Assembly: GCA_043808565.1 (NCBI GenBank)
Contig: JAZDEQ010000016.1
Span: 1-43,767 of the forward strand
Reading direction: 5' to 3'
DNA length: 43,767 bases
DNA from: Candidatus Uhrbacteria bacterium
Lineage (GTDB): Bacteria > Patescibacteriota > Patescibacteriia > UBA9934 > GWF2-40-263
This document shows, piece by piece, positions 14,358 through 36,556 of this stretch. The notes under the pieces are model-generated. The model was not told where the DNA came from and did no database searches. It saw only the letters and a list, made by a program, of their open reading frames with translations. The position numbers were made by a program, and so were the translations under genes. Position 1 is the stretch's first letter. Every line of letters starts with the position of its first letter.

Positions 14358-14438
14358 CCCCTCTCTCTTGTCTCTCCCCCGGGGAGAGAGGATTAAATTA
14401 AGCCCCTCTCCCCGGGGGAGAGGTTGGGTGAGGGGTTG
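14358..14438. repeat. Family D C/T-rich double-hairpin element, copy 1 (empty site)
   Basis: CCCCTCTCTCTTGTCTCTCCCCCGGGGAGAGAGGATTAAATTAAGCCCCTCTCCCCGGGGGAGAGGTTGGGTGAGGGG; near-identical copy at 30487-30597. Confidence 0.9.
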
Positions 14439-19002: not shown

Positions 19003-19093
19003 AATGTCTAATGTCTAATTTCCAATGTCTAATGATGGTAGTCAAAAATTCTTAAAGAAATATTAACCGTCCTTCATTAGACATTAGAAATTC
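19003..19093. repeat. Family B heptamer palindrome copy 2 (AATGTCT…/…ATTAGACATTAG)
   Basis: Shares AAATTCTTAAAGAAATA and TCCTTCATTAGACATT with 36462-36556. Confidence 0.85.
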
Positions 19094-20842: not shown

Positions 20843-20928
20843 CGACGACGTAGAATCGACGATCGACAATTTTACGTCGTCGAAAACACCGTCGCACAAC
20901 CGAAGCGATCGCATCGGTTGTGCGACGG
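20843..20928. repeat. Two adjacent 40-bp palindromes centred on CGATCG
   Basis: 20843-20882 (3 mismatches) and 20889-20928 (1 mismatch). Confidence 0.85.
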
Positions 20929-30486: not shown

Positions 30487-30597
30487 CCCCTCTCTCTTAT
30501 CTCTCCCCCGGGGAGAGAAGATTAAATTAAGCCCCTTTCCCTGGGGGAGAGGTTGGCCTGCCCGTCCGTAGCCCAGCGAAGGCGGGGTGAGGGGTTG
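30487..30597. repeat. Family D element copy 2 carrying a 30-bp insertion at 30557-30586
   Basis: Aligns to 14358-14438 apart from the insert and about 4 substitutions. Confidence 0.9.
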
Positions 30598-34246: not shown

Positions 34247-34258
34247 AATCAAAATCGT

Positions 34259-34296
34259 TTTGCCATTTAAGGCTCGATCGAGCCTTAAATGGCAAA
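34259..34296. repeat. Perfect 38-bp palindrome centred on CGATCG
   Basis: TTTGCCATTTAAGGCTCGA|TCGAGCCTTAAATGGCAAA. Confidence 0.95.
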
Positions 34297-34303
34297 GAGT
34301 AAG

Positions 34304-35773
34304 CTAACGTTTAAACCAAATTTTCATCACTCGCCTGCAGGCTCGCCAAAATTTATGCTCTAACAGTGTAGCCCAAACCACGATGGCTGGAAAGACAATT
34401 ACGGCCCGAAAGATCCTTTGCCAACGCTTGGGCTCTATAAAGAGCCGCCAGAGCCATTCTAAGCCCATTTGGCGCATAAAATGCGGGGCACGAGGTCGGA
34501 AACCAGCAATCATATCTAAAGCGCCACCAATACCGATGGCGATTCGAACACCGGGGAGTTGAGGAAGAATTTTGGCAATAAATTTTTCCTGCTTTCCCTG
34601 CCCCAAAGCCACGGCTAAAATTTTTGGTTCGGTTTTAATAAGTTCGTCTATAATTGATTGAGTTGGCGATCCATTATTCGGCACGTCGCCGGGTTTGATA
34701 ATGACGATATTGGCATTTGGATATTTATTTTTTAGAACCTCGGCGGCTTTTTTAGTCACCTCTGGTCGTCCGCCAACAAGGGCCAGCCGTTCTCCGGTTT
34801 TTACGAGTCGGTCGATAGTATCGACGCCGGTGTGGCGGTGCTCAAGATAATCGTCGGTTAAAGCCGCAACGGCATATTCAAGACCAACACCATCAGGTAA
34901 GAATAAATCGGCTTGATTCAAAAGAGTTAAGAATTCTTTATCTTGTTTAGTTAAAAGAATAAATTCTGGGTTGGGAGTGACAATGGTTTTGGGTTCGGTT
35001 CCGTTAAGCCAATTCTGAAGAGTTTGATCGAGTTCTTGATCGGAGAAGTCGTTGATTTTGACATCGAAGATTGTGTGGAATTTCCTCATAATAACGTCGA
35101 ACGACGTTATTATGATTCCTGTTTTTTTTGATTCAAGGTAGTTTTTAAGCAGTAAAGGGATATTTTTTAGAGATTCTAGTGTAAAAAAACGATCAATCGT
35201 GGCATCATCAACATTTTTTTGTGGTTGGTAGTCGTTTAAAATATTTTGACAAAGCAAATCAATCAGACGTTCTTTTTCTGAAGGCCGCAGTTCGAATTTT
35301 TGAAAAATTTCCTCAAGACCAATATGAATCATTTCGTGAATAATAACACCAAGAAATTTTCTTTGATTATTTTGATTGATTATTATGTAGCCGCTGGGAT
35401 CGAAAGAACCGCCCGGGCCGTAAGCAGTTAAAAGAATTGTGTATTTATTTAATAATTTAAAGCCCCACTGTTTTTGCCATTCAGCCATTTTTTCATAGCC
35501 TTGTAAGATAATTGGTTGGCAATCAGAAATCTTTTTTAAGCTATTCGAAAAATCTAAATCAGGAAAAATTTCTTTTTTAAAAATATCAAATAATTCTTTT
35601 TCGTTTGTTTCGTTTATTTCTTTATTATTTTGATATAATTCAATAAATTCTTTTTGTTCAGGTAAATCGATTTTGTAATTGTTCTCTTTATAAAACTTGT
35701 CTTTTTTGTAAAGATTTTTTACATATTTAAAGGCCTCGTCAGTGGTTTGGGGGCGGATAATTAGGTTGGACAT
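34304..35773 (-). CDS. WecB/TagA/CpsF-family glycosyltransferase fused in-frame to an N-terminal HExxH (zincin-like) domain
   Basis: C-half (from ATG 35089): IVTPNPE, PDGVG, GVD, VALGQGKQE, GIGGALD, RAP..M..GLEWLWRL..EP.R. N-half: YGPGGSF…IIHEMIH. Confidence 0.8.
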   Translation of the reverse strand: MSNLIIRPQTTDEAFKYVKNLYKKDKFYKENNYKIDLPEQKEFIELYQNNKEINETNEKELFDIFKKEIFPDLDFSNSLKKISDCQPIILQGYEKMAEWQKQWGFKLLNKYTILLTAYGPGGSFDPSGYIIINQNNQRKFLGVIIHEMIHIGLEEIFQKFELRPSEKERLIDLLCQNILNDYQPQKNVDDATIDRFFTLESLKNIPLLLKNYLESKKTGIIITSFDVIMRKFHTIFDVKINDFSDQELDQTLQNWLNGTEPKTIVTPNPEFILLTKQDKEFLTLLNQADLFLPDGVGLEYAVAALTDDYLEHRHTGVDTIDRLVKTGERLALVGGRPEVTKKAAEVLKNKYPNANIVIIKPGDVPNNGSPTQSIIDELIKTEPKILAVALGQGKQEKFIAKILPQLPGVRIAIGIGGALDMIAGFRPRAPHFMRQMGLEWLWRLFIEPKRWQRIFRAVIVFPAIVVWATLLEHKFWRACRRVMKIWFKR

Positions 35774-35786
35774 AAAAAATATAGTG

Positions 35787-36319
35787 GGGTCATAATAGCG
35801 GCGGTCGTGGCTTTTTTGACCCCTTTTTTTCTTCAACTATAAAAACTTTTATCCATTTATCCAAACCTATTAAACAAAAAATTTCGGCCAAAAGATTTGC
35901 CGCGTCAAATTGTGAAATCCAAACACTTTTTTGAAGACGAATAAAACAAGAATCTTCTAAAAATATCCTTAAAGCTTCACGTATTTCTTTTTTTACCTCA
36001 GGAATATCAAAAACGACCATGCATTCCTTTCCACTGGGCAAAAGATCGGTTTGAGTTAATTCAAGTTTGAGGAATTCTATTAGACCTTTTTCCGTCAAAT
36101 AAAATTTCTTTTTTTTATTTCCAGTTTCAATAAAATTTCTTTTGATCAAACGCTTAACGTTATCCGATATGATTCTTTTGTCCTTTGTATAAACCCTCGA
36201 AGTGTTGCTGTGTCGACCAATGGAAATTAAAACTTCAGCCATTTTTGAGGTCGGCCTAATTTGATTAAATTTTATTTTTGGTTTACGCATAAAAGCCACG
36301 ATCGCCGTTATTATGACCC
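35787..36319 (-). mobile_element. Candidate IR-bounded single-gene cassette
   Basis: 29-bp inverted repeats (27/29 identical) at 35787-35815 and 36291-36319 bracket one gene. Confidence 0.5.
35790..36290 (-). CDS. PaaX-like protein: winged helix plus Cas2-like ferredoxin-fold domain
   Basis: RLIKRNFI…FYLTEKG (wHTH); MVVFDIPE..K.IREALR..L….F..LQKSVW (PaaX central/Cas2-like). Start placed at ATG 36290. Confidence 0.85.
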   Translation of the reverse strand: MRKPKIKFNQIRPTSKMAEVLISIGRHSNTSRVYTKDKRIISDNVKRLIKRNFIETGNKKKKFYLTEKGLIEFLKLELTQTDLLPSGKECMVVFDIPEVKKEIREALRIFLEDSCFIRLQKSVWISQFDAANLLAEIFCLIGLDKWIKVFIVEEKKGSKKPRPPLL

Positions 36320-36408
36320 ACAACCAAAATTCCTCTGCTGATCCATACAAGTTCCTTTCAAGTATTATTTCCTAAACAATTTTACCCAAAAACCCACTTA
36401 TTCACAAC

Positions 36409-36449
36409 TTGACTTTCCTAAATTGGCACTCTATACTTATGAGTGCTAA
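36409..36449 (+). promoter_or_regulatory. clpB promoter with CIRCE (HrcA operator)
   Basis: TTGACT (36409-14), 17 nt, TATACT (36432-37); TTGGCACTC-N9-GAGTGCTAA at 36423-36449, one mismatch to the CIRCE consensus. Confidence 0.92.
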
Positions 36450-36461
36450 TTTAAATTTTAA

Positions 36462-36556
36462 AATGTCTAATTTCTAATGTCTAATTACGGAATTTTGAAA
36501 TTCTTAAAGAAATAATAACAATCCTTCATTAGACATTCCCAATAATTAGAAATTTC
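36462..36556. repeat. Family B heptamer palindrome copy 3, in the clpB 5' UTR
   Basis: Homologous to 19003-19093. Confidence 0.85.

Follow-up and report, generated by a model that had tools for sequence, protein, structure and literature searches.

A REP-like palindrome apparently paired with a PaaX-type gene, and the open frame that crosses it into TagA, in a Candidatus Uhrbacteria genome

Rickettsia palindromic elements are inserted in frame into genes. Integron attC sites have the end boxes RYYYAAC ... GTTRRRY, and dif modules are Xer-dependent. The closest known system to the one described here is that of REP/REPIN elements with their RAYT transposases (Nunvar 2010, PMC2817692; Bertels and Rainey 2011, PMC3116915), and the former puts REP copy number at typically >100 per genome (PMC2817692). 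The present locus lies in a stretch of 43,767 nt from a Candidatus Uhrbacteria bacterium (contig JAZDEQ010000016.1, here C16), which is called the window below. It centres on a 30-bp perfect palindrome (35086-35115) between two genes on the minus strand, one encoding a WecG/TagA-family glycosyltransferase (TagA; 34304..35089) and the other a peptidase-like protein with an HExxH motif, here HEMIH (35116..35773). A small gene with a PaaX-type domain, here called mini-PaaX (35790..36290), lies upstream of both on the same strand. The comparisons below show the palindrome family to be paired with the mini-PaaX gene as its predicted cognate repeat. The long open frame that runs through the palindrome, which had been read from the letters alone as a chimeric gene (the sequence-only reading), is best regarded as a pair of genes linked over the repeat by a missing stop codon. 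What that reading observed at 35086-35115 is confirmed; its interpretation is partly supported.

The palindrome has no strand and reads TCATAATAACGTCG-AA-CGACGTTATTATGA, with 14-nt arms that are 100% complementary around a centre of 2 nt (14+2+14). Its arm matches the two repeats that flank the mini-PaaX gene at 13/14 positions (36316..36303, minus strand) and 12/14 positions (35790-35803, plus strand), and the 13/14 match noted in the sequence-only reading is thereby reproduced. The similarity exceeds chance: with ≤2 mismatches allowed, the arm 14-mer occurs 6 times in the window versus 1.08 expected, and 0/100 shuffles reach 6. Folded as RNA, the palindrome forms a hairpin of -19.3 kcal/mol (z -3.67). 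Read on the minus strand, the left arm contains TCA-TAA-TAA in the +1 frame, and the ATG of TagA (35089..35087) is part of the right arm.

The source genome (G000; 1.165 Mb, 84 contigs, 41% GC) was scanned for related elements, which were placed against its open reading frames (ORFs); a set of 41 genomes was used for comparison. The named relatives of the proteins it encodes belong to the Patescibacteria. Twelve related elements, termed family 1, were found in G000. Five are short 30-nt forms (C16:35086, C31:12401, C57:2986, C77:7117 and C77:8117), three are 59-60-nt forms with a small central hairpin (C54:1988, C58:5652 and C22:307), and four are diverged copies, designated type B (C16:35790, C16:36287, C58:5594 and C67:37740). 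The outer arms read TCAYAATAACG / CGTTATTRTGA and the centre CGATCG or CGAACG; the 11-mer TCATAATAACG occurs 7 times genome-wide. Eleven of the 12 copies are intergenic, often 5-30 nt from a start or stop codon, and the sole copy spanned by a long frame is C16:35086. The scan for further copies suggested by the sequence-only reading thus returned a dispersed family, and the proposal that 35086-35115 is a cargo-less version of the PaaX cassette holds in that it shares a repeat family with both PaaX-flanking repeats. The core pattern of family 1 was found in 4/41 genomes (4 sites in G000, 2 in G001, 1 in G004 and 1 in G012; 0 with the reversed control) and in one other species of the genome collection. 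Long palindromes of all families number 178 in G000 versus 16 in the shuffled control.

Two other explanations of the repeats were rejected. A HIP1-like excess of CGATCG is not supported by the counts, with GCGATCGC found 20 times versus 14.7 expected and CGATCG not ranking in the top 8 over-represented 6-mer palindromes. The idea of a functional regulon fails on the neighbours of family 1, which are unrelated housekeeping genes (rnpA|yidD, AspRS and LepA), with TyrRS|ArgRS flanking one of the copies in G001. At C77:7117-8146, two family-1 palindromes bracket a gene for a nucleotidyltransferase-domain protein (275 aa), located between lepA and an HD-domain gene, and a 56-nt palindrome of another family adjoins one of these copies. 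A different 30-nt imperfect palindrome, ATTTTTTCTTTCAAAGTGGGAAGAAAAAAT, has 17 copies in G000, often within ~100 nt of contig ends (e.g., C35:82, C36:82, C49:10, C50:12, C52:12 and C58:11), and seems to be a repeat at which the assembly was interrupted.

The mini-PaaX gene encodes a 166-aa protein with a modelled winged helix and a Cas2-like domain, for which the protein collection holds an identical 166-aa record. It matches Pfam PaaX_M (PF20803; E 1.9e-12, 47.5 bits versus a cut-off of 24) and, weakly, NCBIfam cas2 (E 4e-6). The top Foldseek match is E. coli PaaX 8a39 (E 2.1e-3, probability 0.99), followed by Rv0674 and Cas2 proteins. The N-terminus gave no match to PF07848 at E ≤0.01; it was modelled as helices and a two-strand wing, with weak MarR-type matches. 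Pfam returned no PaaX_C (PF08223) match in the protein, which ends ~15 residues past the Cas2-like domain. The Cas2 motif has an invariant Asp. A homodimer model scored 0.50 versus 0.00 for the best control, a value reached by 20/30 solved pairs and 1/23 single chains, with runs agreeing in ≥76% of contacts and a partner pLDDT of ≥81. In this model the interface follows the final strand of the Cas2-like domain, and the model may have passed because it resembles solved Cas2 or PaaX dimers.

Several observations connect family 1 with this gene. The ATG of mini-PaaX is located in the type-B copy at the 5' end of the gene (36287..36316, minus strand), and the type-B copy at the other end (35790..35819, plus strand), inverted relative to the first, shares sequence with the final codons and the TGA stop. 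In orthologs of the C16 protein the C-terminal tails are translated family-1 palindromes, and the family-1 arms are conserved among orthologs of 55-65% identity. Altogether 75 mini-PaaX matches were found in 21/41 genomes, ranging from 0 to 9 per genome (4 in G000, 9 in G010), and the palindromes flanking the four G000 paralogs, among them those on C23, C55 and C79, belong to a different arm family for each paralog. Zero-loop palindromes centred on CGATCG/CGGCCG occur downstream (≤150 nt past the stop) at 18 of 37 mini-PaaX loci, upstream (≤200 nt before the start) at 10, and on both sides at 6, and all 6/6 loci bracketed in this way have matching inner arms. The background is 15 downstream, 7 upstream and 0 on both sides of 920 ORFs, and was taken from G000 alone, with the 37 loci coming from many genomes. 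Counting any palindrome gives 21/37 upstream and 23/37 downstream versus 263 and 348 of 920, a difference of about twofold; the strong enrichment is limited to the CGATCG-type zero-loop class. Cognate palindromes are dispersed in other genomes as well, with 8 copies in G021, 4 in G010 and 13 in G011.

Palindromes of other arm families were also identified in the window. A CGATCG-centred palindrome with CCATTTAAGG arms (34256..34299, no strand) lies between the TagA stop and the next gene, and its family also flanks the mini-PaaX paralog on contig C23. Another CGATCG-centred palindrome, at 20889-20928, belongs to the arm family of the C79 mini-PaaX paralog. Within the portions of the literature covered by a full-text search, no published account of PaaX/Cas2-like genes paired with palindromes in these bacteria was found. 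Thermus TTHA0973, which has an AACG..CGTT operator, was dropped as a lead; the part of the literature consulted describes it as TetR-like, not PaaX-like.

The locus was compared among relatives. In G001 the shared upstream control region directly adjoins TagA, with no palindrome. In G004 this stretch is followed by an unrelated 263-aa gene and then by a homologous palindrome, with 7 nt left between it and the TagA ATG. In G002 a mini-PaaX gene (54% identity) precedes TagA, and a CGATCG palindrome overlaps the mini-PaaX stop. A metagenome contig, L081, whose TagA is 65% identical, carries in order the end of a mini-PaaX ortholog (63%), a palindrome, 52 nt, an identical palindrome and TagA; here a 43-nt direct duplication (L081:361-497), made up of a family-1 palindrome and the first 13 nt of TagA, flanks the 52-nt spacer, and one frame is continuous across both copies and on into TagA. 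Short AT-rich matches alone suggest that the spacer may hold remnants of the HExxH gene. Since the palindrome also precedes TagA in G004 and L081, with no complete HExxH gene at that place, it is a resident of the mini-PaaX/TagA junction, and what varies is the interior between two copies. The same observation goes against the "excision scar" of the sequence-only reading.

Solo copies are supported by sequence comparison as being gained and lost between close relatives. Upstream of AspRS (protein 91% identical), G000 has a palindrome, the spacer is conserved but empty in G001 and G004, and G002 also has none. The rnpA|yidD spacer has a short form in G000, a long form with an inserted hairpin in G004, a half copy in G001, and none in G002 and G003. 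A 29-30-nt GC-rich hairpin with core TCCGCCGAAGCCCRGCGAAGGYGGA has 23 copies at ≤6 mismatches, and in palindromes from two different arm families its position is precisely the dyad centre, CGA|TCG. Its sites include C54:1988-2046, C58:5652-5710, C52, C48, C79 and C33, and locus L102 in G004.

The two genes on either side of the palindrome differ in how widely they occur. TagA is a core gene encoding 261 aa; its PF03808 match (E 4.9e-44, 150.5 bits versus a cut-off of 27.4) covers profile positions 1-167 of 168 and residues 309-475 of the 510-aa frame. It is present in 40/41 genomes, and 37 of the 39 other best matches are open frames of 244-374 aa. The N-terminus is MRKFHTIF in the source genome, MKIHNIF in G001 and MRKFHLIF in L081. 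Residue 1 of these stand-alone homologs aligns with the palindrome ATG, in agreement with the proposed native start inside the palindrome. Some TagA homologs in other Patescibacteria (P0041, P0051, P0053, P0059 and others) are fused to other domains, the partners being an unnamed N-terminal part, tRNA-synthetase domains and a C-terminal NUDIX.

The HExxH gene has 219 codons. Its GC content is 29.8%, compared with 32.3% for mini-PaaX, 44.9% for TagA and 43.0% for ClpB. The Pfam search gave no named domain in this N-terminal part of the fused frame. Homologs were found in 4/41 genomes, with frames of 177, 218 and 207 aa that are all stand-alone and distant from TagA, and the gene is missing at the TagA position in G001, G002 and G004. 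These observations support a sporadic, AT-rich accessory gene. It does lie between two copies of the family, at 35790-35819 and 35086-35115, as had been claimed. A word-indexed search of 5.8 billion proteins returned 5 stand-alone homologs of 239-258 aa. An exhaustive search of 1.84 billion representatives returned 595 relatives; most of the 150 listed are 200-280 aa long with the domain C-terminal, and only two of these 150 have room for TagA downstream, both lacking PF03808. Pfam analysis of 13 of the 150 gave extra domains such as PDZ, trypsin-like peptidase and GNAT, never TagA. With the 489-aa fused frame as the query there were 226 matches, and all 120 listed cover 39-57% of the query, corresponding to the TagA half. 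A fused HExxH-TagA form is absent from the matches listed from these two large protein libraries, and no fusion conserved in relatives without the palindrome is among them. Searched separately, the halves thus behave as separate genes, TagA being mostly stand-alone and the HExxH part always so, and the sequence comparison supports the fused 489-codon frame as specific to the source genome.

In an alignment of 7 HExxH sequences, the homologs end ≤4 residues from the junction, and H146, E147, H150, E166 and E168 are invariant. An AlphaFold2 model of the HExxH part has a mean pLDDT of 87.6 and gives weak matches to M1-peptidase/LTA4H folds (E 0.055 or worse). Gluzincin-type zinc metallopeptidases combine HExxH and a downstream Glu with a thermolysin-like catalytic fold; given the invariant residues, fold matches to M1 peptidases that are weak, and relatives with PDZ or trypsin-like peptidase domains, the HExxH protein is a candidate for this class.

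The in-frame join of TagA to the AT-rich HEMIH domain was confirmed as an open reading frame. The ORF at 34304..35836 (minus strand) is a 510-aa frame, or 489 codons from the ATG at 35773. The HExxH frame, which has no stop of its own, crosses 10 palindrome codons and enters TagA at TagA's own ATG. On the minus strand the palindrome is open in 2/3 frames, and the TagA ATG and the HExxH gene share one open frame. A run of eight A (35122..35129, minus strand; T8 on the plus strand) lies 7 nt upstream of the palindrome. With this run one base shorter, the TAA TAA of the left arm comes into frame three codons past the run, where the homologs end. For the join, one missing stop codon beside an 8-base A-run suffices. 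The "new fusion protein" of the sequence-only reading is not borne out beyond its open frame, and the HExxH part ends where its homologs end. Annotators who meet a 489- or 510-aa "fusion" at this locus would do well to take it for two genes with a repeat between them, unless reads or peptides prove the contrary.

How the stop was lost can be explained in more than one way. If the true A-run were one base shorter and the eighth A an assembly or sequencing error, the HExxH gene would stop at TAA TAA, TagA would start 20 nt later and the two would be ordinary genes. The shift adjoins an 8-base homopolymer, the HExxH homologs end at this very point, and the other 11 family copies are all intergenic; as weak evidence in the same direction, the protein collection returned the neighbouring 166-aa protein but not the fused one. 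However, the genome shows no sign of general homopolymer errors, since only 14 of the 2029 A/T runs of ≥7 bases in G000 are placed so that a one-base change joins two long frames, and L081 keeps the spacing with no homopolymer. We regard an error as unlikely. The same bases could also be read as a site of programmed frameshifting or transcriptional slippage that sets the ratio of HExxH to fusion protein. The A8 run and the preceding codon form an A-AAA-AAA heptamer in the zero frame, which is followed by the 7-nt spacer and the 14-bp hairpin of -19.3 kcal/mol, but the site is not conserved and yields no meaningful shifted product. The -1 frame continues for ~40 codons with no homolog, the stop is located in the +1 frame, L081 has no heptamer, the same hairpin stands at 11 intergenic places, and 8-base A-runs are common (384 in the genome). 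The look of a frameshift site is most likely coincidental, and recoding is very hard to credit.

Two further explanations concern the repeat itself. The sequence-only reading took the palindrome for a mobile-cassette scar or non-autonomous remnant and the HExxH gene for a second captured cassette, the event having made a new functional two-domain protein. In its favour are the pairs of family copies that enclose the HExxH, mini-PaaX and C77 nucleotidyltransferase genes, the sporadic occurrence and AT-richness of the HExxH gene, the turnover of solo copies among close relatives, and the two identical 43-nt copies around just 52 nt in L081; TagA also tolerates N-terminal additions elsewhere, as in the 610-aa P0041. 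Against this stand the relatives in which the palindrome precedes TagA with no complete HExxH gene, the G004 HExxH homologs, which are not flanked by family 1, the lack of a fused relative among the listed library matches, and the single missing stop codon that accounts for the join. Furthermore, no recombinase or transposase was found at the locus, two Phage_integrase matches and one Y1_Tnp match being on other contigs. Capture of this kind appears decidedly doubtful. A selfish system similar to REP/RAYT would instead have mini-PaaX cut or move the palindromes through its Cas2-like domain, with effects on neighbouring genes as a by-product. Such a system would fit the one-to-one pairing of protein paralog and arm family, the dispersed cognate palindromes in G021, G010 and G011, the copies between convergent genes and in operon spacers, the presence of an empty site, a truncated copy and a nested insertion, the sporadic gene number and the invariant Asp. 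It fits less well with a protein that has no HUH or Y1 motifs and whose closest fold is a repressor (PaaX 8a39), with the low copy numbers, and with the conservation of the arms among orthologs only 55-65% identical, as would be expected of a binding site under selection. We consider it possible, although on balance we do not favour it.

The explanation that we consider likely is that a family copy paired with mini-PaaX resides at the 5' end of TagA, with an accessory HExxH gene beside it whose stop is missing. The TAA TAA of the left arm would have terminated the ancestral HExxH gene, and this stop would have been removed either by the change of a single base in the neighbouring A8 run or by an error there. 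A mini-PaaX dimer may recognize the palindrome as DNA, which would make it an operator or roadblock before TagA, and on read-through transcripts the RNA hairpin may bury the TagA start codon. The repeat itself would spread and decay like REP elements. A promoter-like TTGAAT-16-CATAAT, in which the left arm serves as the -10 box, might give transcripts without the left arm; it is only a lead because the promoter scan, with 11 sites versus 8.0 +/- 3.3 expected, is near expectation.

Several points weigh against the residence of a mini-PaaX-paired copy beside an HExxH gene that lost its stop. The length of the A8 run is that of the assembled sequence. In L081 the stretch before the second palindrome equals that of the source in length and frame with no homopolymer, in a short alignment matching at 14/22 positions, and this spacing suggests that the in-frame relation may be older than a recent slip. 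Among the 41 genomes, two relatives have long TagA open frames, of 915 aa (G005) and 763 aa (G031). Other paralogs have cognate palindromes that are found between convergent genes as well, and in narrow operon spacers (eno|pgk), where an operator role fits poorly, and G004 keeps the palindrome yet gave no mini-PaaX match. Binding of the palindrome by mini-PaaX is a prediction, and the enrichment of palindromes at mini-PaaX loci carries the one-genome background mentioned above.

A broader proposal, which we put forward tentatively and consider improbable, is that mini-PaaX proteins and their cognate palindromes centred on CGATCG make up a mobile repeat system, guided by protein, in ultra-small bacteria. 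It would be functionally analogous to RAYT/REPIN but built on a winged-helix and Cas2-like protein. Its palindromes, with stops in one arm and a start in the other, would insert at gene boundaries and couple, uncouple or fuse the neighbouring genes. If so, the HExxH-TagA frame would be a gene fusion by a repeat, caught in the act. Patescibacteria have few recognizable regulators and almost no described cis-elements, and a pair of protein and palindrome found order-wide would offer a handle for binding assays. The case combines the gain and loss of solo copies, a second hairpin inserted at the dyad centre and a copy that joins two genes in frame.

Other features were identified around the locus. 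The shared upstream control region (36379..36449, minus strand) contains a promoter-like TTGTGA-17-TAAAAT (36379-36407) and an inverted repeat (36423-36449), TTAGCACTC-N9-GAGTGCCAA, labelled CIRCE-like after the CIRCE consensus. This repeat lies between clpB and the mini-PaaX/TagA genes and is kept in G001, G004 and several other relatives. A second type of inverted repeat (AATGTCTAAT ... ATTAGACATT) occurs upstream of clpB (36476-36537) and again 17 kb away (19017-19092). A long inverted repeat of a further family (CTCTCCCCCGGGGAGAG ...) has two copies in the window, at 14372-14422 and 30501-30551. A search against Rfam at the gathering threshold identified one tRNA only in the window.

Compared with known systems, the locus resembles attC and dif modules in that accessory genes are bracketed by imperfect palindromic sites with conserved ends, a variable centre, and short and long forms. 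The attC end consensus is not matched, however, with only AAC/GTT fitting the arms. No integrase was found at the locus, the Phage_integrase matches in G000 being on contigs C4 and C18 only. The arms also differ between paralog families in one genome, and a single recombinase would not read them all. As with Rickettsia palindromic elements, a palindromic repeat lies in frame in a protein-coding frame, but the 30-bp element is much shorter and bridges two separate genes rather than lying inside one. The PaaX repressor of phenylacetate catabolism (PF07848/PF20803/PF08223; PDB 8a39, 3kfw) has a winged helix followed by a Cas2-like middle domain, an order also seen in the model of mini-PaaX. It is the best PDB fold match of mini-PaaX, which resembles it further in a predicted dimer and in palindromic DNA beside its own gene. 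In contrast to PaaX, mini-PaaX has no PaaX_C domain and no paa genes nearby, its sites stand at either end of the gene and are scattered genome-wide, and there are many paralogs per genome.

REP/RAYT systems differ from the present one in three respects. The bracketed gene here encodes a protein with a modelled winged helix and a Cas2-like domain, not a Y1/HUH transposase, and the sole Y1_Tnp match in G000 (C31:13235-13588) has no palindrome within ~430 nt. The palindromes here are long, near-perfect dyads with a CGATCG-type centre, and they number 4-13 copies per genome (12 for family 1), not hundreds. The likeness to REP/RAYT nevertheless extends to the short palindromes dispersed in intergenic spacers, as with 11/12 of the family-1 copies, to the small gene bracketed by its own palindrome type with a separate repeat family for each paralog, and to copies that are gained, lost and decaying between relatives. 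By analogy, the elements can be classed as REP-like repeats paired with a PaaX-type protein.

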